A DNA stretch of 64,000 bases from IMG/VR virus record IMGVR_UViG_3300049988_000263; one strand, written 5' to 3'. The notes under the pieces were generated by a model, which saw nothing but the letters and a program-made list of their open reading frames with translations, had not been told where the DNA came from and made no database searches. Of the stretch, positions 4,117 through 60,430 are shown one piece after another (the stretch's first letter is position 1; each line of letters opens with the position of its first letter). The position numbers were made by a program, and so were the translations under genes. Source of the DNA: a virus.

Positions 4117-4181
4117 GCTTACTTGGACTTGACGTTTATCTAGAACCGCGTACATTGCGCGCTCCCCAACAGGAGCGCGCA

Positions 4182-5108
4182 GTGGTAATCAACATCGAAA
4201 GACTGCTGAGCGCCAGCCGGACCACCCACGCGAAACTCGCCCAGGAAACCCACTGCTACTGGTGCGAGGAACTGTTCAACGACGAACACGTCTATGGGTC
4301 GAACCCGACCATGGATCACGTCATTCCGCTGGCCGATCTCGGACCCCGTACCGCCGCGTTCAATCTCGTCCGAGCCTGCGGGTTCTGTAATGGACTGCGC
4401 GGGCACGCCCACGTGTACGAATGGGAAGTCGTCGTACATGACTTCGTCAAACCATACCGGCGCGATCTCCCCGGTATGGCCCAGGCTCTGGCCCAGGCAG
4501 AAGGCTTCCGACGATACGCGGTGATCGTGAAAAGCATCGCCGAACGCCAAGCCATCGAACAAGTCGAAGAAGTCTCGATCCGCCGTTGGTCAGTCGATGA
4601 CGCCGCCTCAGAATTCAACGTCTCGCTCAAACGGCTCCCGAACGATTACGGGATCAACTGGTTCGAGTTCCTAAAAAGCATGATCCATACGGTCAAGGTG
4701 GATCAGATGAGCGCCGCCACCTCTCCGGTCTGGACCAACGCGGGCCTCGACCTGAAGATCAGCCGCCATGCCCGCCATGGAGCGCTGCTGGACGGCGATC
4801 TCGCCATGGTCACCCCAACGGAATGGAGAATCCTGAAGACGTTCAAAGACGCTCCAGAAGCCGTCCGCTTCCGAACAGCGGTCGGTGATGGGAATGTCTA
4901 CATGAACCTGCTCAAACTCGGCCGAGATCGAATGGGTATCCTTCTGCATCGGCCTAACCGGACCAAACAGGAGGCGAAGAACCTCTTCCTCTACGGAACG
5001 AGCGGAGCCGCCGCCCTGCGAATCCACGCGTACGCAACCCAAGAAATCATCCATCCCCTGTTGATGGAGCAAAAAGAGGTTGACACGCGTTTAGGGGTTC
5101 CTGCATAA
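4182..5108 (+). CDS. HNH nuclease-domain protein
   Basis: CYWC...MDHVIPL...NLVRACGFCNGLRG; GTG start after AGGAG. Confidence 0.75.
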   Translation: MVINIERLLSASRTTHAKLAQETHCYWCEELFNDEHVYGSNPTMDHVIPLADLGPRTAAFNLVRACGFCNGLRGHAHVYEWEVVVHDFVKPYRRDLPGMAQALAQAEGFRRYAVIVKSIAERQAIEQVEEVSIRRWSVDDAASEFNVSLKRLPNDYGINWFEFLKSMIHTVKVDQMSAATSPVWTNAGLDLKISRHARHGALLDGDLAMVTPTEWRILKTFKDAPEAVRFRTAVGDGNVYMNLLKLGRDRMGILLHRPNRTKQEAKNLFLYGTSGAAALRIHAYATQEIIHPLLMEQKEVDTRLGVPA

Positions 5109-5111
5109 ATA
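5080..5111 (+). promoter_or_regulatory. Promoter of the Ser/Gln leader
   Basis: TTGACA (5080) and CATAAATA (5104). Confidence 0.7.
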
Positions 5112-5116
5112 AAATC

Positions 5117-5212
5117 ATGATCGTCCTGAGTTCACAGCAGCAGTCCCAACAGTCGTCGTCCTCATCGAGGGCGCGGGGTTCTGTGCTGGGCGTGGAAGAG
5201 ATTGCTTTGTAA
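5117..5212 (+). CDS. Attenuator leader peptide, Ser/Gln-rich (MIVLSSQQQSQQSSSSSRARGSVLGVEEIAL)
   Basis: 9 Ser and 5 Gln codons in 31 aa; followed by a terminator; upstream of Ser/Gln tRNAs. Confidence 0.8.
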   Translation: MIVLSSQQQSQQSSSSSRARGSVLGVEEIAL

Positions 5213-5239
5213 GCGAATCCCAACCACGTTTAGGTTCAG

Positions 5240-5269
5240 ACCCCGGTGCGAAAGCAGCCGGGGTTTTTT
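5240..5269 (+). terminator. Attenuator terminator 1
   Basis: ACCCCGG-TGC-GAAA-GCA-G-CCGGGGT-TTTTT; the 5' arm is also complementary to 5174-5183. Confidence 0.85.
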
Positions 5270-5294
5270 ATTGCCAAATTCAGGAAGAATCACA

Positions 5295-5612
5295 ATGAGT
5301 TACCGAAATATCAACATCGACGGCCGACAGTGGCGCTTCAAGATCGGACGATCGTCCGTCCATCTTCGCGACCCGGACGGCAAGGGACAGGTGATCCCCA
5401 AGATCGAGATCACCCGTTACCGCCAGAGTCCGCGCAAGGAGATCAACATCGATCTGCAAGTGCACCGGGATGATCCGAAGAGCTTCCTCGACGCGATCAG
5501 TCGATGCTCCGATGCTCTCGCGATCATCGAAGAAGAGACAACATTAGGTCCACGTGACATTCGTCACTGGATCGAGAATCGACGCACGACTACTTCGATC
5601 TACAGAAACTAA
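5295..5612 (+). CDS. Hypothetical protein immediately after attenuator 1
   Basis: MSYRNINIDGRQWRFKIG...; AGGAAGA upstream. Confidence 0.6.
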   Translation: MSYRNINIDGRQWRFKIGRSSVHLRDPDGKGQVIPKIEITRYRQSPRKEINIDLQVHRDDPKSFLDAISRCSDALAIIEEETTLGPRDIRHWIENRRTTTSIYRN

Positions 5613-5644
5613 TCTGAAAAAGATCGAAAATAGTACTTGCAACA

Positions 5645-5890
5645 CCCCGTTCGATGATCTAGGTAAGGGTCATCGAACGGGGCACGGACCCTACCAACGC
5701 CTTAGGGTCCATAAACATCAGCCAGAGGGGAAACCCCCTGGAGGTCCGCGAGAGCACCGTCCGGGGTCAAGCCGATAACAGGCGAGTACCGGAAGGCCAT
5801 GGAGCGGGTGGCCAAACATAAGGAAGGAGTGAGGGTCATGGGTACAGCAGGGCGGGGCGCCCATCCCTAAGTCGGGAAAGCCTCAACAGA
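5645..5890 (+). ncRNA. Putative structured ncRNA before the tRNA-Ser cluster
   Basis: No credible CDS; 16-bp hairpin 5645-5682, GGACCCT/AGGGTCC, CCAG-GGGG-AAA-CCCC-CTGG and GGCCA/TGGCC hairpins. Confidence 0.45.
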
Positions 5891-5901
5891 GAGTGTAGCG
5901 C

Positions 5902-5990
5902 GGACGGGTGACCGAGCCCGGCTTAAGGTAGCGGTCTTGAAAACCGCCGAGGGTGAAAGCCCTCCGTGGGTTCGAATCCCACCCCGTCCG
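5902..5990 (+). tRNA. tRNA-Ser(UGA)
   Basis: Cloverleaf, loop CTTGAAA, long variable arm, G73; no encoded CCA. Confidence 0.95.
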
Positions 5991-6038
5991 CCCTACACTT
6001 TCACGATCCAGCGGAGATTTGCTGAGGTCGTAACAAGA

Positions 6039-6159
6039 ATATCAGAATCGCGTGACTGAGAGGCTTAAGGTTGACGCAGATAGATTGTGACCCGAAGGTG
6101 TCTGCAACACCGCGTGAAGGGAGCAACCGCAGGCTCGAATCCTGTCGCCTTTCTGATAT
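6039..6159 (+). ncRNA. tRNA-like RNA with expanded anticodon arm
   Basis: Ser/Leu-type D-loop ACTGAGAGGCTTAAGGT, T-arm GCAGG-CTCGAAT-CCTGT, acceptor pairs 5/7, closing stem ATATCAG/CTGATAT. Confidence 0.55.
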
Positions 6160-6165
6160 ACCTAC

Positions 6166-6251
6166 GGAGTCTGGGCAGGATGGTAATGCAGCGGTTTGCT
6201 AAACCGTACAGCCGAAAGGCTGAATGGGTTCGATTCCCATAGACTCCGCCA
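6166..6251 (+). tRNA. tRNA-Ser(GCU)
   Basis: Cloverleaf, loop TTGCTAA, variable arm, GCCA end. Confidence 0.95.
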
Positions 6252-6303
6252 AAAAATAAGTATCACGCCTTACAAAATGCGTGGTAGATTAGTATTTGCG
6301 CAG

Positions 6304-6392
6304 GGCGAGTTGGCGGAGTCTGGCTGATCGCGAACGATTCGAAATCGTTTAGACCTGAAAGGGTCTCGGGGGTTCGAATCCCTCACTCGCCG
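6304..6392 (+). tRNA. tRNA-Ser(CGA)
   Basis: Cloverleaf, loop TTCGAAA, variable arm. Confidence 0.95.
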
Positions 6393-6416
6393 CGCTAAAT
6401 TCTATATGTTTTTGAG

Positions 6417-6507
6417 GGACAGGTGGCTGAGTTGGCTTAAGGCGCGCGCCTGGAAAGTGCGTGTACGTGAAAGCGTACCCCGAGTTCGAATCTCGGTCTG
6501 TCCGCCA
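6417..6507 (+). tRNA. tRNA-Ser(GGA)
   Basis: Cloverleaf, loop CTGGAAA, GCCA end. Confidence 0.95.
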
Positions 6508-6570
6508 AAAACATATAGATAGTAAATGAGCTAATTTCTATTATTCCTGCATATTGTAGGAATTTTAGAA

Positions 6571-7038
6571 GTGAATAGAAAACCCAATTGTAGTTGTTCT
6601 GTTTGTAGTACTGAAATATACAGAAGACCGATTCAAATTGAAGCAGGTCCAGTTTTCTGTAGCTCAAAATGCCATGGGTCAACGACGAGAAGACCTCCGG
6701 GTAAGTGCGCAAACTGCGAAGCGGAGATTTCAGGAAAGAGAACATATTGTTCTAAGTCTTGTGCTACGCATAGTAAAATTGGACTGAAGTACAACAAGGG
6801 TAATCCCGCGCTGTATTACAGTTTGAAGCTTAGGGTTGATCTTGCGGAAGCTCGCGGTGGAAGCTGTGAAATCTGTAGGAATGATAACTTCGCAATTCTA
6901 CAAGTCCATCACCTCATTAGAAGGTGTGATGGAGGCGGGGATGAGCATAGTAATCTTCAGCTTCTTTGTGCAAACTGTCATGCAGAGCAGCATAGGGGTA
7001 AATTTACATTCGATATGTGGAAAGAAAAGAAAGAGTAA
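6571..7038 (+). CDS. HNH homing endonuclease within the tRNA cluster
   Basis: Several CxxC motifs; LQVHHLIRR...NLQLLCANCHAEQH; AT-richer than flanks. Confidence 0.85.
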   Translation: MNRKPNCSCSVCSTEIYRRPIQIEAGPVFCSSKCHGSTTRRPPGKCANCEAEISGKRTYCSKSCATHSKIGLKYNKGNPALYYSLKLRVDLAEARGGSCEICRNDNFAILQVHHLIRRCDGGGDEHSNLQLLCANCHAEQHRGKFTFDMWKEKKE

Positions 7039-7053
7039 CGAGAAGTGTTTTGC

Positions 7054-7127
7054 TGAGGGATCATCTAGCGGTAGGATAGCGGTCTCTGACACCGTTCACC
7101 TTGGTTCGAATCCAAGTCCCTCAGCCA
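7054..7127 (+). tRNA. tRNA-Gln(CUG)
   Basis: Cloverleaf, U1, loop CTCTGAC, GCCA end. Confidence 0.93.
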
Positions 7128-7155
7128 AACACTTTACAAGACAGCAGTAATTCGC

Positions 7156-7226
7156 TTGGGATTAGTTTAACGGTAGAACTAAGCACTCTGAATGCTTCAG
7201 TCGTGGTTCGAATCCATGATCCCAAG
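7156..7226 (+). tRNA. tRNA-Gln(CUG), second copy
   Basis: Cloverleaf, loop CTCTGAA. Confidence 0.9.
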
Positions 7227-7243
7227 CAAATTACTGTTTTAAT

Positions 7244-7285
7244 GTAGCCAGGGCAGCGATGCTCTGGCTACAATCGTTTCATGAC
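7244..7285 (+). repeat. 42-bp direct repeat copy 1 (11-bp hairpin + ATG)
   Basis: GTAGCCAGGGCAGCGATGCTCTGGCTACAATCGTTTCATGAC, identical to 7541-7582. Confidence 0.95.
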
Positions 7286-7544
7286 GATCCCCGACAATCT
7301 CCCGCTGATCCAGTCTGAAAAGACGGCGCCGACCGACGATCCACTGTTCAGCGATTTCGCTTATGGGTTCACCCTCGACGATCGGCACGCACAGCTTTAC
7401 GAATGTGTCGCGTGGTGTGCCGAGCGATTCGGAACGTGCAGCAAGAACGGAAGTTGGTTCCTGAACGCCGTTGGCCGGTATGGGACCGCGATCTGGTTCC
7501 GAGATTTCAACCACGCGATGGAGTTCAAGCTCACATGGAAGTAG
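7281..7544 (+). CDS. FKxRW-family small protein
   Basis: Ends FRDFNHAMEFKLTWK. Confidence 0.8.
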   Translation: MTIPDNLPLIQSEKTAPTDDPLFSDFAYGFTLDDRHAQLYECVAWCAERFGTCSKNGSWFLNAVGRYGTAIWFRDFNHAMEFKLTWK

Positions 7545-14567: not shown

Positions 14568-14842
14568 TGCGGACGTTCAAGGATATCCAAAACGACGATG
14601 CAACCACGGTGATCCATCCGGCTGACCCGTGGTCGCTTGCGGTGTTTCAGGCGATGAAGAGCGCACTGGAGGCCGAAGCGGAACTCGACAAGGCCCTGTC
14701 CGACCCTGCCCTGAACTACACGGGGCAGTACGAGGCGATCGACTTCCACGGAGGCAAGGAGATCGCGTTCAATCGCGCGGTGGACCATCTCGGTTCGACG
14801 ATCACCAACATGGTGGTTGCCAAAACCAAAGAGATCAGCTAA
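14558..14842 (+). CDS. Hypothetical protein
   Basis: 94 aa, coupled to the previous gene. Confidence 0.55.
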   Translation: MDVMRTFKDIQNDDATTVIHPADPWSLAVFQAMKSALEAEAELDKALSDPALNYTGQYEAIDFHGGKEIAFNRAVDHLGSTITNMVVAKTKEIS

Positions 14843-14921
14843 ATAGGTTTGATGACCTACGCGATCCACCAACGACAAACGGCCTGAAGACTTCGTCCCC
14901 TTGGACGAGGTCTGTTTCTGT

Positions 14922-14995
14922 TCGGGGATCGTTTAATGGTAGGACGGGGGATTTTGGCTCCCTTAATGTGGGTTCGACTCCTACTCCCCGAGCCA
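14922..14995 (+). tRNA. tRNA-Gln(UUG)
   Basis: Cloverleaf, U1-A72, loop TTTTGGC, GCCA end. Confidence 0.9.
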
Positions 14996-23833: not shown

Positions 23834-23864
23834 TTGACACCTCGGTTAAGGTCTGAGATAAATA
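23834..23864 (+). promoter_or_regulatory. Promoter of the His leader
   Basis: TTGACA-N17-GATAAATA. Confidence 0.75.
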
Positions 23865-23869
23865 AAGTC

Positions 23870-23920
23870 ATGAACACGCATTCGCATCATCATGTCTCGA
23901 AGGGGTCACACCCGTCGTAA
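23870..23920 (+). CDS. Attenuator leader peptide, His-rich (MNTHSHHHVSKGSHPS)
   Basis: 5 His in 16 aa, three in tandem; terminator and tRNA-His follow directly. Confidence 0.85.
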   Translation: MNTHSHHHVSKGSHPS

Positions 23921-23951
23921 ACGCCGCAAGGCGTGATGCGAATCTGTGTGC

Positions 23952-23982
23952 AACCCCGGTAAGCTATGCTTCCGGGGTTTTT
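23952..23982 (+). terminator. Attenuator terminator 2
   Basis: AACCCCGG-T-AAGC-TAT-GCTT-CCGGGGTT-TTT; 23946-23957 can pair instead with 23902-23911. Confidence 0.85.
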
Positions 23983-24003
23983 CTTTGGTCTTTGGACCAA
24001 TAT

Positions 24004-24079
24004 GGTGGCCGTAGTTCAGTGGTAGAACGTCGCCCTGTGACGGCGAATGTCGCCGGTTCGAATCCGGTCGGCCACCCCA
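24004..24079 (+). tRNA. tRNA-His(GUG) with G-1:C73
   Basis: Cloverleaf, loop CTGTGAC, encoded G-1, C73 and CCA. Confidence 0.95.
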
Positions 24080-33157: not shown

Positions 33158-33189
33158 TTGACACGCGTTTTGCACTCCCGGTATAAATA
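33158..33189 (+). promoter_or_regulatory. Promoter of the Met/Cys/Pro/Tyr/Phe leader
   Basis: TTGACA-N18-TATAAATA; shares TTGACACGCGTTT with the promoter at 5080. Confidence 0.75.
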
Positions 33190-33194
33190 AAATC

Positions 33195-33263
33195 ATGAAC
33201 ACGATGTGCCGCCCAATGCCGTATTTTCCCACCAAGGGGGCTCAGCCCACCGTGGAGCGGTAA
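33195..33263 (+). CDS. Attenuator leader peptide MNTMCRPMPYFPTKGAQPTVER
   Basis: Same promoter-leader-terminator layout as 5117 and 23870. Confidence 0.75.
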   Translation: MNTMCRPMPYFPTKGAQPTVER

Positions 33264-33292
33264 CACGCGCATATCCATAGGTGAGGTTTCGA

Positions 33293-33322
33293 GCCCCGGT
33301 CGCGAAAGCAGCCGGGGTTTTT
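33293..33322 (+). terminator. Attenuator terminator 3
   Basis: GCCCCGGTCGCGAAAGCAGCCGGGGTTTTT, nearly identical to terminator 1; GAGCCCC (33291-33297) pairs with GGGGCTC (33237-33243). Confidence 0.85.
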
Positions 33323-33435
33323 CTTTGCCTATAGCGTTCCCAAGTCAGACTCACCGAGTCAGATAACGGGGAAGCTGTGTCAGTAATAAAATTTGAGAGT
33401 ACTGAAAATACTTTCAAAAAAATTCAAATTAGTCG

Positions 33436-34290: not shown

Positions 34291-34374
34291 GGGAGAGTGT
34301 CCCGAGCGGCAATGGAGGCAGACTGTAAATCTGCTGCGTAAGCTTCGTAGGTTCGAGTCCTACCTCTCCCACCA
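34291..34374 (+). tRNA. tRNA-Tyr(GUA)
   Basis: Cloverleaf, loop CTGTAAA, variable arm, ACCA end. Confidence 0.95.
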
Positions 34375-34567
34375 AGAATTACCGAACGGTAATAAAAACC
34401 GTTTATTACCGTTCGGTTATAACGATGCTCGACAGCAGAATGAGGCTGGCGGATGGGAATCCATGGTAGTGCCCACCGTGCCCTTCGGGGATAGGTGGTG
34501 TGATTCCCCAAGCATCGACCAGAGATCGAGACCTGCGCGTTCTGCGGTGCGCCCATGGTCTCGTCGT

Positions 34568-34646
34568 CGGGGTGTAGCTCAGTCAGGTAGAGCGCTCGGT
34601 TTGGGACCGAGAGGATTCGTCAGTTCGATTCTGACCGCCCCGACCA
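34568..34646 (+). tRNA. tRNA-Pro(UGG)
   Basis: C1-G72, loop TTTGGGA, ACCA end. Confidence 0.93.
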
Positions 34647-34714
34647 AAGAATACCGGTAGGAGGAGCACCCGTTCCTCTCTAAGTCGCCCTGCGGATGGA
34701 GGGTAGAGCCAAAT

Positions 34715-34790
34715 GCCTCTGTAGCTCAGTTGGTAGAGCTTTCGATTGAAGATCGAAGAGTCGGCGGTTCGAGTCCGTCTGGAGGCACCA
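34715..34790 (+). tRNA. tRNA-Phe(GAA)
   Basis: Cloverleaf, loop TTGAAGA, ACCA end. Confidence 0.95.
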
Positions 34791-34899
34791 ATTCGTCCTC
34801 CCTGAGTAATTGGGAAGGATAACAGGGTAGAAGTGGGGTTAGATCACTGCAACGTTCGGAACGTTGCAAACTCGGGGCAGCGCCGGGTACCCTGACCAC

Positions 34900-35400
34900 T
34901 TACTGTCGCTTCCGCCACGCGTCTATGTAGGCCATGATCTTGGCCTCGACGAGGTGGCGGAAGCGGGAGTGCCAATATTGGTGATGATTTGGACATAGCG
35001 GGATGAGATTCCCAGGCTCGTTGTTCGAATTATCGCCATCGAGATGATGCACTTCGACGATGTTCTCTTCGTCGCAGACAACGCATCGTTTCGAATGGAA
35101 GTGAAAGCAGGTGGAGCGATACCGGGATTCTTTCCAGTTCGCAGAATCTGGTCCAGAGCGGAAATGGGTGTTTGCGCATCCGTATCCGCAAGTTGCTGAT
35201 GTCTTGTAGTTCTTTATCGGAGAATCGCAGACAATACAGGGTTTTAGATTCGACGGATTCAGGTGGCACGACGCTTCGTGTTTCTTGATGTTACCAAGAG
35301 TTCTTTCGGCAGAACAGTAGCGACAGGCTTCCTTCCGGACAGCCGCTCGGCGCGCTTTCTCAAGATTCTGGTAATGTTGTTCGGATCGATTATAAGACAT
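34900..35400 (-). CDS. HNH homing endonuclease within the tRNA cluster (antisense)
   Basis: CxxC motifs; VEVHHLDGDNSNNEPGNLIPLCPNHHQYWH. Confidence 0.9.
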   Translation of the reverse strand: MSYNRSEQHYQNLEKARRAAVRKEACRYCSAERTLGNIKKHEASCHLNPSNLKPCIVCDSPIKNYKTSATCGYGCANTHFRSGPDSANWKESRYRSTCFHFHSKRCVVCDEENIVEVHHLDGDNSNNEPGNLIPLCPNHHQYWHSRFRHLVEAKIMAYIDAWRKRQ

Positions 35401-35465
35401 GTCAGAGTAAGGCTTAATGAATAAGCATACTCTGACAGATCGGTTGGACTCAGGTCCATAAGTTT

Positions 35466-35540
35466 GGCAGTGTAGCTCAGGGGTAGAGCAGACGACTCAT
35501 AACCGTCAGGTCGGTGGTTCGAAGCCACCCACTGCCACCA
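35466..35540 (+). tRNA. tRNA(CAU): Met or Ile2
   Basis: Cloverleaf, loop CTCATAA, ACCA end. Confidence 0.92.
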
Positions 35541-35546
35541 AGGTTT

Positions 35547-35621
35547 GTTCGTGTGGTGTGAAAGGTTAGCCAGGGCTCTGCAAAAGCTCTTATGACAGTT
35601 CGAGTCTGTCCACGAACTCCA
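35547..35621 (+). tRNA. tRNA-Cys(GCA)
   Basis: Loop CTGCAAA, U73, CCA. Confidence 0.88.
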
Positions 35622-35627
35622 GGGTAT

Positions 35628-35704
35628 CAGCGCGTAGCTCAGTCAGGTAGAGTATCACGTCGGGAACGTGAGGGTCGTTGGGTCGTAGCCAACCGTGCTG
35701 ACCA
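35628..35704 (+). tRNA. Atypical tRNA-Pro (GGG in the standard register)
   Basis: C1-G72, A73, CCA; anticodon loop TCGGGAA (C33, A37); T-loop GTCGTAG. Confidence 0.65.
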
Positions 35705-60286: not shown

Positions 60287-60354
60287 ACAAATTCCCTACC
60301 ACGACTCGTTTTGGGTTGACAGACCCGCGAATCCGTTTATATACAAATGCATGT

Positions 60355-60430
60355 AGCGACGTGGCGTGAGTGGATAACCGCAGGCCCGCAAGGTCTGATC
60401 ATACAGGTTCGAATCCTGTCGTCGCTGCCA
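60355..60430 (+). tRNA. Atypical tRNA (GCA anticodon, Cys-like or pseudo)
   Basis: 7-bp acceptor, T-arm ACAGG-TTCGAAT-CCTGT, loop CCGCAAG (C33), weak D-stem, G73, CCA. Confidence 0.55.

Follow-up and report, generated by a model that had tools for sequence, protein, structure and literature searches.

Positions 5080-5269 of this phage DNA probably form a ribosome-mediated (leader-peptide) transcription attenuator, placed over a gene for a 105-aa small protein (ORF105), a structured RNA, four tRNA-Ser genes and two tRNA-Gln(CUG) genes (Table 1; the window is the whole 64,000-nt stretch that was analysed). The elements, the alternative pairings, their conservation and their covariation are present, and leader composition matches the tRNA set across many units. 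A Ser/Gln attenuator had been proposed here in the first-pass annotation, and that reading is supported at the sequence level by the four-segment layout, the compensatory changes, the cognate codons and the leader-tRNA rule.

Table 1. Features of the putative attenuator, the genes downstream of it and the related units in the window.
Feature	Position (strand)	Remarks
Putative promoter	5080..5111 (+)	-35 TTGACAC (5080-5086), -10-like CATAAATA (5104-5111); read from sequence
Leader ORF	5117..5212 (+)	31 codons + stop; reads MIVLSSQQQSQQSSSSSRARGSVLGVEEIAL
Regulatory run	5129..5167 (+)	13 codons (codons 5-17), Ser and Gln only; direct reading
Segment 1	5136-5148 (+)	inside Ser/Gln run
Hairpin 1:2 (predicted anti-antiterminator)	5135..5188 (+)	-25.4 kcal/mol, z = -3.0
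Segment 2	5173..5188 (+)	GCGGGGUUCUGUGCUG; alternative partners are segments 1 and 3
Hairpin B	5190..5229 (+)	nested in antiterminator; holds leader stop 5210-5212
Segment 3	5233..5246 (+)	antiterminator 3' strand and terminator 5' arm
Predicted intrinsic terminator	5238..5269 (+)	GC-rich hairpin 5238-5266, core CCCCGG/CCGGGG; -20.4 kcal/mol, z = -4.6
ORF105	5295..5612 (+)	105-aa small protein; Shine-Dalgarno AGGAAG at 5282-5287
Structured non-coding stretch	5613..5900 (+)	z = -3.5
tRNA-Ser UGA	5901-5993 (+)	ARAGORN, Rfam
tRNA-like element	~6040-6160	among tRNA-Ser genes
tRNA-Ser GCU	6166-6251 (+)	ARAGORN, Rfam
tRNA-Ser CGA	6304-6393 (+)	ARAGORN, Rfam
tRNA-Ser GGA	6417-6507 (+)	ARAGORN, Rfam
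HNH homing-endonuclease gene	6571..7038 (+)	inserted in tRNA cluster; Pfam HNH 5e-08, phrog_1271 3e-15
tRNA-Gln CUG (two genes)	7054-7127, 7156-7227 (+)	ARAGORN, Rfam
Candidate mini-unit	14840..14921 (+)	TAAATA-N6-ATG, leader MTYAIHQRQTA (two CAA codons); less well supported than the three main units
Unit 2	23834..23985 (+)	same promoter, leader MNTHSHHHVSKGSHPS, terminator; pattern matches
Unit 3	33158..33325 (+)	leader MNTMCRPMPYFPTKGAQPTVER, terminator; pattern matches

The regulatory run reads AGT TCA CAG CAG CAG TCC CAA CAG TCG TCG TCC TCA TCG, which bears out the earlier description of a run made only of AGT, TCA, TCC, TCG, CAG and CAA, with Gln codons at four CAG to one CAA and tRNA-Gln(UUG) encoded elsewhere (14922). 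The downstream tRNAs listed in that annotation were recovered by both ARAGORN and Rfam, and the run contains a cognate codon for each of the six (four Ser, two Gln(CUG)), so that all four Ser isoacceptors encoded 3' are covered as had been claimed. No two-amino-acid run in any of the six frames of the window is longer, and one other, of 13 residues, is equally long. Four orthologues (comparison set L001-3, L004 and L147) preserve the 13-codon Ser/Gln-only run; Ser and Gln replace each other at codons 11, 16 and 17, and no other codon enters. The leader ORF has 30-31 codons in these four, with diverged C-terminal halves.

Downstream of the run, CGGGGTTCTG (5174-5183) had been proposed to pair with CAGACCCCG (5237-5245). 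The two are indeed complementary, and the best duplex extends to 5173-5188 / 5233-5246 at -18.7 kcal/mol, which was equalled by 12 of 500 dinucleotide shuffles; this 2:3 complementarity is only moderately beyond chance, single units being matched by 12 to 98 of 500 shuffles. The fold energies of hairpin 1:2, the whole antiterminator (5174-5245, -35.3 kcal/mol, z = -3.7) and the terminator are all far better than those of shuffles. Hairpin 1:2, in which the Gln/Ser codons CAGCAG.CAG.CCC pair with GGG..CUG.UGCUG, appears in the full-length minimum-energy fold. Pairing in the terminator reaches 5266 and takes up the first three of six T residues (5264-5269). In the orthologues segment 2 is conserved and its changes are mirrored in segment 3, the 2:3 pairing being retained through a T-A to C-G double change. 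One pair of the terminator stem is T-A, C-G or A-T depending on the orthologue, which is again compensatory, and the sequence of hairpin B differs among them.

We modelled the switch with a ribosome at successive positions, forbidding pairs across the ribosome; the picture was the same with such pairs allowed. With the A site at codons 1-15, the 5' arm of the terminator is paired upstream (P 0.88-0.99). From codon 16 this upstream pairing ranges over 0.23-0.89, and from codon 19 it holds at 0.23-0.40. Folding under ribosome constraints, which the first-pass annotation had suggested as a check, fits an attenuator, with the antitermination pairing strong at codons 1-15 and weaker from codon 19. 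Units 2 and 3, L001 and L004 all show this step at the end of the regulatory run, and in the model unit 2 behaves as a classic his attenuator. The truncated, ribosome-free RNA of unit 1 already favours the antiterminator (P 0.97), so unit 1 would lack the classic state in which no translation means termination, unless hairpin 1:2 is kinetically trapped.

In full-length equilibrium folds the terminator prevails at nearly every ribosome position, and the switch would therefore have to be kinetic. Kinetic switching is likewise accepted for the trp attenuator. The same dominance of a very strong terminator, behind a strong promoter from which abundant short leader RNAs are expected, could point instead to a constitutively terminated small transcript (a small RNA or the 31-residue peptide), with the codon match due to another cause, e.g. 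a translational 'test' or tRNA titration. We regard this as improbable, since the C-terminal half of the peptide has diverged, yet codon class, ORF length and segment 2 are conserved. Moreover, the complementarity of segment 2 to the terminator arm is compensated in the four orthologues and found again in each of the three paralogues, and a transcript that always ended at the terminator would leave ORF105 no alternative route of transcription.

At its 5' end the unit overlaps another gene. The 3' end of an upstream HNH gene lies in the promoter (stop 5106-5108), the leader ORF starts 5 nt 3' of the -10 element, and inspection found no Shine-Dalgarno sequence before the ATG at 5117. The HNH overlap and the missing Shine-Dalgarno sequence, together with the other 13-residue run in the window, would suit a chance arrangement, where the terminator merely ends transcription of the HNH gene and a low-complexity (CAG/TCG) part of its 3' untranslated sequence happens to read as a Ser/Gln ORF. 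We consider this very improbable. The unit is intact in L001-3, where the upstream gene is different; the run admits no codon other than the Ser and Gln codons that exchange in evolution; and the ATG is always in frame with the run and a set distance past the promoter (in L147 it is 8 nt, not 5 nt, past ATAAATA). The promoter is kept in L001, L004 and L147. In the window TTGAC-N-ATAAA occurs exactly three times, each time before a leader (0.27 expected), and the terminator pattern CCCGG...CCGGGGTTTT occurs only three times, each time 3' of a leader; the two patterns always occur together.

The position of the ATG, just 5 nt past TAAATA, also suggests that the leader mRNA is probably leaderless, with the ATG as its 5' end. 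Among the 22 TAAATA sites of the window, nine have an ATG exactly 5 nt 3', and six of these nine open ORFs of 102-236 codons. A 499.6-kb phage has 10 TAAATA-to-ATG sites against none for a control pattern. The same promoter-to-ATG geometry thus serves long protein genes of the phage, which answers the objection that the leader has no Shine-Dalgarno sequence. From this shared geometry we infer that transcription starts at or beside the AUG, and the leader would be translated from there. One RNA-library contig of a related phage covers the leader and the terminator region and runs into the start of ORF105. Because it also extends ~35 nt 5' of the ATG, it is uninformative on the start site, and it may represent DNA carry-over.

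Another argument against a chance arrangement is that leader composition predicts the tRNAs that follow. This holds for both paralogous units of the window and for more than ten units found in other phages (the 499.6-kb phage, further IMG/VR contigs and metagenome contigs). Unit 2 has a His leader and is followed by tRNA-His, which starts at 24005; unit 3 has a leader of M, C, P, Y and F upstream of tRNAs Tyr, Pro, Phe, Met, Cys and Pro (34291-35704). Cognate codons cover 6/6, 1/1 and 6/6 of the downstream tRNAs in units 1, 2 and 3, which have three different tRNA sets. In other phages, the leader VAGRGVVANRANRG precedes tRNAs Gly, Arg, Val, Asn and Ala; TTTSSTTISWSIT precedes Ile, Thr and Ser; LPLLPLLPLPLL precedes three Pro and five Leu tRNAs; HSHHIHHH precedes two tRNA-His; a Thr-rich leader precedes three tRNA-Thr; and ELDEREDD precedes one Asp and two Glu tRNAs. 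In a permutation test on the first 12 units, 98 matches were counted; 200,000 permutations gave 31 on average and 81 at most, and none equalled the observed value. The candidate mini-unit resembles a Gln unit (...EAQRQQR) of the 499.6-kb phage, and its 10-bp hairpin and U-rich tail abut tRNA-Gln(UUG) at 14922.

The first-pass annotation had cautioned that the 105-aa ORF and a structured region separate the terminator from the first tRNA, and this caveat holds; the first tRNA lies about 630 nt past the terminator. ORF105 itself belongs to the regulated unit: its Shine-Dalgarno sequence is only 13 nt past the end of the T-tract at 5269, and on inspection there is no room for a promoter between the two. 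Judged from this layout, ORF105 would be transcribed only via terminator readthrough. Homologues with 97%, 72% and 48% identity occupy the same position, and the family comprises 14 clusters. ORF105 had no Pfam or PHROG match, and its AF2 model (pLDDT 78) gave no fold match. The structured stretch (5613-5900), for which no Rfam family was found, contains a kept hairpin (5645-5682, loop CTAGGTA), a 137-nt block (5686-5822) and a conserved 3' part. Some relatives have the block, and it is missing from L001, from L147 and from the run X4 relative; in an RNA library, depth is greatest over 5742-5818. The order of the four tRNA-Ser genes is the same in L001 and L004, and no intrinsic terminator was predicted on the + strand of 5270-7230.

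Since ORF105 is the first gene past the terminator, a real attenuator could serve only ORF105, and perhaps the structured RNA, with the tRNAs coming mainly from an internal promoter near 5637-5720. The sequence TTGCAA-N17-TAGGTA at 5637-5665 is kept as TTTACA-N17-TAGATA in L001, CATAAACA (5709-5716) is a near-copy of the phage -10 motif, and unit 3 likewise has a second TTGACA (33437) past its terminator. However, we think such a partial coupling unlikely. The leader codons fit the tRNAs and not ORF105, whose Ser/Gln content is ordinary (8 Ser and 4 Gln in 105 residues); more distant ORF105 homologues do not adjoin tRNAs; and in unit 2 and many units of other phages the tRNAs directly follow the terminator. 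The -10-like hexamers are poor, TAGGTA having 2/6 matches and lacking the final T, and a promoter scan made no call at TTGCAA-N17-TAGGTA. TAGGTA also lies in the loop of hairpin 5645-5682, whose stem covaries with L001 and L147, which marks an RNA-level feature and argues that RNA from upstream crosses the hairpin. A strong independent promoter at 5630-5660, which the first-pass annotation had named as a possible constitutive source of the tRNAs, is therefore not supported, given its poor sigma-70 match and the place of its -10-like hexamer in the covarying loop; a strong internal promoter seems unlikely.

Under the attenuator reading, which couples leader translation to termination, the strong promoter would start the RNA at or next to the AUG. 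A ribosome would load on this leaderless AUG and then meet the 13 Ser/Gln codons, which sample every downstream isoacceptor. If Ser- or Gln-tRNA ternary complex were short, the ribosome would stall on segment 1 and leave segment 2 free to pair with segment 3 once that is made; no terminator could then form, and RNA polymerase would continue into ORF105 and the tRNA genes. With fast decoding, the ribosome would translate past segment 2 and reach the stop at 5210, and hairpin 1:2 would re-pair behind it, such that the terminator hairpin forms and transcription ends at the T-tract.

This arrangement recalls the enterobacterial leader-peptide attenuators (trpL, hisL, pheL, leuL, thrL, ilv, and pheM of the pheST synthetase operon), which also have a short ORF with a regulatory codon run, mutually exclusive hairpins 1:2, 2:3 and 3:4, an intrinsic terminator directly before the regulated genes, and ribosome speed on specific codons as the sensor. 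Leaders with several amino acids recall thrL (Thr, Ile) and the ilv leaders (Ile, Val, Leu). The enterobacterial leaders share no sequence homology with those described here, however, and the present unit is phage-encoded, lacks a Shine-Dalgarno sequence, is apparently leaderless and has an extra stop-codon hairpin nested in the antiterminator. Its leaders list arbitrary amino acids, even isoacceptor-specific codons, mirroring the tRNAs that follow. What it regulates are tRNA genes and a small ORF, where the enterobacterial leaders regulate biosynthetic enzymes or a synthetase; the feedback would thus act on tRNA supply and not on amino-acid supply. We found no description of such control for tRNA genes in the literature.

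Polycysteine-encoding leaderless short ORFs have been described as cysteine-responsive attenuators in mycobacteria (bioRxiv 10.1101/834739). As described there, the leaderless mRNA begins at the AUG and consecutive cognate codons make the downstream operon responsive to decoding, as proposed here; those ORFs control bacterial cysteine-metabolism genes, whereas the present unit has an explicit terminator/antiterminator and phage tRNA genes.

T-box riboswitches, too, act in cis from a leader: they sense the state of one particular tRNA, switch between terminator and antiterminator, and precede genes that serve tRNA charging or amino-acid supply. They do so without translation, however, by direct binding of uncharged tRNA through a specifier codon and the T-box sequence, whereas the signal proposed here is a run of codons in frame with a preceding start codon. 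No match to a T-box or other Rfam family was found in the unit at E-values up to 10.

If the attenuator operates as proposed, it would provide negative feedback on decoding capacity, by which the phage replenishes precisely the tRNAs for codons that ribosomes are decoding slowly. This large, uncultured, leaf-associated phage, known only from metagenomes, would thus probably make its Ser and Gln tRNAs mainly under slow decoding.

Codons 5-17 of the unit 1 leader, the short ORF of the Ser/Gln unit, form a run of 13 consecutive Ser/Gln codons that is conserved across four orthologues. As the first-pass annotation had read it, the run uses AGT, TCA, TCC, TCG, CAG and CAA only, with 4 CAG to 1 CAA, and the genes downstream are tRNA-Ser with the anticodons UGA, GCU, CGA and GGA plus two copies of tRNA-Gln(CUG). 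The same reading placed tRNA-Gln(UUG) apart from this cluster, at 14922, and saw the terminator separated from the first tRNA gene by a 105-codon ORF and a structured region; all of this held when the sequence was inspected directly. The ORF (ORF105) spans 5295-5612 and has a good Shine-Dalgarno sequence, and the structured stretch (z = -3.5) is non-coding. The unit is not alone: the window has exactly three copies of its promoter pattern (TTGAC-N17-21-ATAAA) and exactly three of its terminator pattern (CCCGG...CCGGGGTTTT), always paired, and at the codon level 13 of the 13 tRNAs behind these three units are matched by a cognate codon in their own leader. Upstream of tRNA-Gln(UUG) lies a minimal candidate attenuator, whose 10-bp hairpin is followed by a U-rich tail that ends where the tRNA begins. 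By comparison, tRNA-Cys(GCA) at 60355 follows TTGACA-N18-TATACA immediately, together with an ATG-TAG start-stop pair, and neither a leader nor a terminator was found in 60318-60430; this gene is an unregulated counterpart of the tRNA-Cys in unit 3, the paralogue at 33158.

Features of the Ser/Gln unit, its paralogues and orthologues, and comparable units elsewhere (positions are those of the window unless a locus or record is named)
Feature	Position	Leader, sequence or fold	tRNA genes behind, or other detail
Unit 1	5080	SSQQQSQQSSSSS	tRNA-Ser x4, tRNA-Gln x2
Leader ORF, unit 1	5117-5212	MIVLSSQQQSQQSSSSSRARGSVLGVEEIAL	31 codons
Hairpin 1:2 (anti-antiterminator)	5135-5188	-25.4 kcal/mol, z = -3.0	CAG/CAG/CAG/TCC codons pair with GGG..CUG.UGCUG
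Antiterminator	5174-5245	-35.3 kcal/mol	variable hairpin with stop codon enclosed
Terminator	5238-5266	-20.4 kcal/mol, z = -4.6	T6 run 5264-5269, first three T paired at stem base
Segments 2/3, window		CGGGGTTCTG / CAGACCCCG	
Orthologue L004		MIFLSSQQQSQQSSSSSRARGSVLCVKETGV	ORF105 identity 97%; segments 2/3 TGTG / CACA, register shifted
Orthologues L001-3		MIVLSSQQQSSQSSSQQGTRGFALCRDKVGY	ORF105 identity 72%; segments 2/3 in L001 CGGGGCT / AGCCCCG, clean T-A to C-G double change
Orthologue L147		MIVLSSQQQSSQSSSQSGPRGFALARIKGM	ORF105 identity 48%; segments 2/3 CGGGGTTTTG / CAGAACCCCG, 10-bp helix
Unit 2	23834	MNTHSHHHVSKGSHPS	tRNA-His 20 nt past five-T tract, then HisRS-like gene (first-pass reading)
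Unit 3	33158	MNTMCRPMPYFPT...	tRNA-Tyr, Pro(UGG), Phe, Met, Cys, Pro(GGG)
Minimal candidate	14840-14921	MTYAIHQRQTA (11 codons, two CAA) behind TAAATA-N6-ATG	tRNA-Gln(UUG)
Long ORFs at TAAATA-ATG	1182(-), 11363(-), 15027, 29558, 36979, 38094(-)		no Shine-Dalgarno, no -35 element
Structured-RNA block	5686-5822		137 nt
Near-copy of -10 motif	5709-5716	CATAAACA	inside the block, near its start
tRNA-like element	~6040-6160; L001 1790-1915; L004 1365-1480	D-arm of Ser type, T-arm (GGxTCGAATCC), hairpin GGTGT-CTGCA-ACACC	between tRNA-Ser(UGA) and tRNA-Ser(GCU)
Inverted repeats	5893-5898/5993-5998; 6401-6413/6507-6519; both tRNA-Gln flanks		
HNH genes	4155-5108, 6571-7038		
L004 ORFs	L004 994-1203, 1827-2426		69 aa, 199 aa
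Locus L104		MFTHSHHIHHHCSEGSGKV	tRNA-His x2
Loci L055 and L064		12 Thr in 30 residues	tRNA-Thr x3
Metagenome scan		ELDEREDD and ADEREED	Asp + two Glu tRNAs
Metagenome scan		I/T/S/W leader	Ile + Trp tRNAs
499.6-kb phage		MNTNTTFVAGRGVVANRANRG	Met, Gly x2, Arg x2, Val, Asn x2, Ala x2
499.6-kb phage		MNTTTSSTTISWSITFG	Ile, unassigned tRNA with 4-base anticodon call UCCA, Thr x2, Ser x3
499.6-kb phage		MNTQSHHTYYHYHA	His x2, preceded by a stretch read as tRNA-Tyr-like, without ARAGORN call
499.6-kb phage		Shine-Dalgarno-led, with LPLLPLLPLPLL (TTG, CTA, CTG, CTT, CTC, CCA, CCG, CCC)	Pro x3, Leu x5
499.6-kb phage		...RKRKRL (short)	Lys x3
499.6-kb phage		...MERERSIG (short)	Glu x2
499.6-kb phage		...AQRQQR (short)	Gln x2
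499.6-kb phage, CUA-anticodon tRNAs	102238 (+), 106351 (-)		amber-reading; ARAGORN label 'Pyl'
499.6-kb phage, UCCA-anticodon tRNA	402970-403045 (-)		

The correspondence between leader and tRNA set recurs in other phages. IMG/VR was scanned for the promoter-plus-ATG pattern, and one locus with such a unit (L035) belongs to a phage record of 499,572 bp that carries several more. In the first 12 units taken together, 98 residues of the leaders matched the unit's own tRNA set, against a permutation mean of 31 and a maximum of 81, and the observed match was reached in none of 200,000 permutations. The short leaders in which a cognate codon alternates with Arg (RKRKR, ERER, QRQQR), a design also seen in the minimal candidate of the window, recur in the 499.6-kb phage. 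Two tRNAs of that record (loci L122-L146) have CUA anticodons, and the tRNA with the UCCA anticodon occupies the place where the single Trp codon of its leader predicts a tRNA-Trp. Most of the 107 pattern matches were unrelated, the dominant family being a 42-codon ORF, MRCRSAATALRF.... The 42-codon frame, MRCRSAATALRFSTLPTAATRRCARS..., stands behind the pattern at L008, L014, L015 and about 40 further loci, mostly from one metagenome; this conserved frame may be an RNA gene instead of an ORF.

No Shine-Dalgarno sequence was found before the unit 1 leader ATG, which lies exactly 5 nt downstream of CATAAATA. If a -10 element sits there, transcription is expected to begin at or beside the AUG. 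An ATG occurs at the 5-nt offset in 9 of the 22 TAAATA sites of the window, compared with 0-2 at any other offset, and six of the nine open ORFs of 102-236 codons. In the distantly related 499.6-kb phage the TAAATA-ATG pattern is found 10 times, versus 0 for a control pattern, and heads long ORFs (five) as well as short leaders. The orthologue L147 departs in spacing, having 8 nt instead of 5 before the ATG. At the six long ORFs the arrangement resembles a promoter of T4-late type from which leaderless mRNAs would be made, and the spacing may serve as a general rule for gene starts in the phage of the window. The geometry is consistent with leaderless initiation, and the leaders are probably leaderless mRNAs.

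All three structures expected of a leader-peptide switch, the 1:2 hairpin, the antiterminator and the terminator, fold far better than shuffled sequence. The antiterminator pairing proposed in the first-pass annotation was recovered over a slightly longer span, segment 2 (5173-5188) with the terminator 5' arm (5233-5246), at -18.7 kcal/mol; 12 of 500 shuffles equal this duplex energy. Segment 2 has two possible partners, the codon run or the terminator 5' arm, and in silico a 2:3-like pairing is present in units 2 and 3 too. A ribosome stalled on the regulatory codons would free segment 2 from hairpin 1:2, allowing 2:3 to form. Folding with a ribosome footprint, as had been suggested, was run on the complete leader at equilibrium, but the terminator was favoured at nearly all ribosome positions and the test could not discriminate, as is likewise the case for the trp attenuator. 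We therefore folded only the RNA present before the terminator 3' arm emerges, forbidding pairs across the ribosome. In this model of unit 1, upstream pairing of the terminator arm has P 0.88-0.99 for A sites on codons 1-15; P fluctuates from 0.23 to 0.89 once codon 16 is reached and remains within 0.23-0.40 from codon 19 onwards. The step in P coincides with the end of the regulatory run in 5/5 units modelled. The ribosome-free RNA of unit 2 (His) gives the classic terminator state (P 0.05); that of unit 1 does not (P 0.97), which is a weakness of the model unless hairpin 1:2 is kinetically trapped, which would restore the terminator state.

The window itself is large-phage DNA, with a NinI-type phosphatase, several HNH endonucleases, a ClpB-like ATPase and 16 tRNA genes, and was recovered nearly whole from leaf metagenomes. 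In INPHARED, blastn found similarity confined to tRNA-Ser and no close relative, and IMG/VR scans seeded with ORF105 and the HNH protein gave no match. Four variants of the Ser/Gln unit were reached via ORF105 homologues. All share the order promoter, leader, terminator, ORF105, structured RNA and tRNA-Ser genes, and tRNA-Gln genes were found in every variant whose contig extends far enough. The run consists in each case of 13 codons, Ser and Gln exclusively, and codons 11, 16 and 17 show Ser-Gln exchanges that each take at least two base changes. No sequence is conserved in the second, C-terminal half of the leader, yet the ORF is 30-31 codons long in every variant. One pair of the terminator stem is T-A, C-G or A-T depending on the variant. 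Taken with the co-changing segments 2 and 3, the run composition, the ORF length and this covarying terminator point to selection on codon class and RNA structure, not on the peptide.

Behind the unit 1 terminator lie ORF105 and six tRNA genes. The Shine-Dalgarno sequence of ORF105 starts 13 nt past the T-tract, so ORF105 is accessible by readthrough only. Its product had no Pfam or PHROG match, and its AF2 model (pLDDT 78) had no Foldseek match in PDB or the AlphaFold clusters. Distant homologues of ORF105 do not adjoin tRNAs, so it may be a passenger. On the arrangement of the sequence, the attenuator probably controls the whole unit, tRNAs included: no plus-strand terminator was predicted between 5270 and 7230. 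The other reading, that the attenuator controls ORF105 alone and the tRNAs are made from a separate promoter, is improbable. It would be favoured by a strong promoter at about 5630-5660, which the first-pass annotation had named as part of what would refute its proposal; TTGCAA-N17-TAGGTA does occur there, but it is a poor match that the promoter scan left uncalled. Moreover, the -10-like hexamer of this site forms a hairpin loop, and the stem of that hairpin covaries between relatives, which argues that RNA from upstream crosses this region. Further downstream, the near-copy of the -10 motif in the structured RNA could start a separate RNA. The 137-nt block around it is present in L004 and absent in L001, L147 and the relative in sequencing run X4, and may be an inserted small-RNA gene. 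A phyllosphere metatranscriptome has a relative at 90-95% identity, in the form of contigs that do not give start or end positions; depth in that RNA library is highest at 5742-5818. One contig reaches from the leader across the terminator region into the first part of ORF105, but it includes the promoter sequence and therefore proves little, and these contigs may be DNA carry-over.

Inverted repeats bracket the tRNA genes and add 6-13 bp to their acceptor stems; those on either side of tRNA-Ser(UGA) covary (GTGTAG/CTACAC in the window, GTCCAG/CTGGAC in L001), and the repeats may be processing sites of a polycistronic precursor. A conserved tRNA-like element with an invariant hairpin and flanking inverted repeats lies within the array, uncalled by ARAGORN and Rfam at ~6040-6160. 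Relaxed ARAGORN searches with introns gave it inconsistent identities across three orthologues (Ser, His, Gly), and it is left unassigned. Homing-endonuclease-type genes flank and interrupt the cluster; the window has HNH genes, and the two ORFs of L004 are placed elsewhere. Such differences in position among close relatives suggest that endonuclease genes move actively through the tRNA arrays.

Unit 1 shares with the trpL/hisL class a short ORF with a cluster of codons for the sensed amino acids, an intrinsic terminator between this ORF and the downstream genes, and predicted 1:2 and 2:3 pairings, the latter using the terminator 5' arm. To our knowledge, all described members of that class regulate amino-acid biosynthesis or aminoacyl-tRNA synthetase genes, whereas the targets here are tRNA genes of a virus and ORF105; unit 1 would thus work like this family but is not an ordinary member. 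Also unlike classical attenuators, the leaders list arbitrary amino acids, with isoacceptor-specific codons that mirror the tRNAs behind them, and their start appears leaderless. In initiation mode the closest relative is the mycobacterial leaderless polycysteine short-ORF attenuator (10.1101/834739). Rfam returned only tRNA, both for the whole window at the gathering threshold and for 5000-7300 at E-values up to 10, thus ruling out T-boxes, known leaders and known sRNAs; a T-box, with its stem I, specifier loop and T-box antiterminator sequence, had been considered and had no match at those thresholds. Full-text searches of the literature yielded no description of attenuators ahead of phage or cellular tRNA genes.

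The tRNAs of phages are usually regarded either as supplementing codon usage constitutively or as spares in case host tRNAs are cleaved. It is conceivable, if rather doubtful, that large phages have in these units a general, modular 'decoding-capacity sensor', by which clusters are turned on, one codon class at a time, when the matching host tRNAs vanish. If true, the triggers could be host shut-off, codon-usage mismatch or tRNA-cleaving defence nucleases, and the attenuators could serve as built-in detectors of tRNA-targeting immunity. These would also be the first known tRNA genes under leader-peptide attenuation, and ready-made orthogonal, codon-specific transcriptional switches; the units could be compact codon-specific sensors for synthetic biology. 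For annotation, the rule would be a promoter, a short ORF rich in the amino acids of the downstream tRNAs, and then a terminator. Attenuation, a textbook mechanism, would extend to tRNA genes as a target class and to viruses. If the leader works as proposed, the phage would sense how fast each codon is decoded and produce each tRNA set as it is needed, which would tie tRNA depletion in infected cells to the expression of phage genes in a directly testable way.
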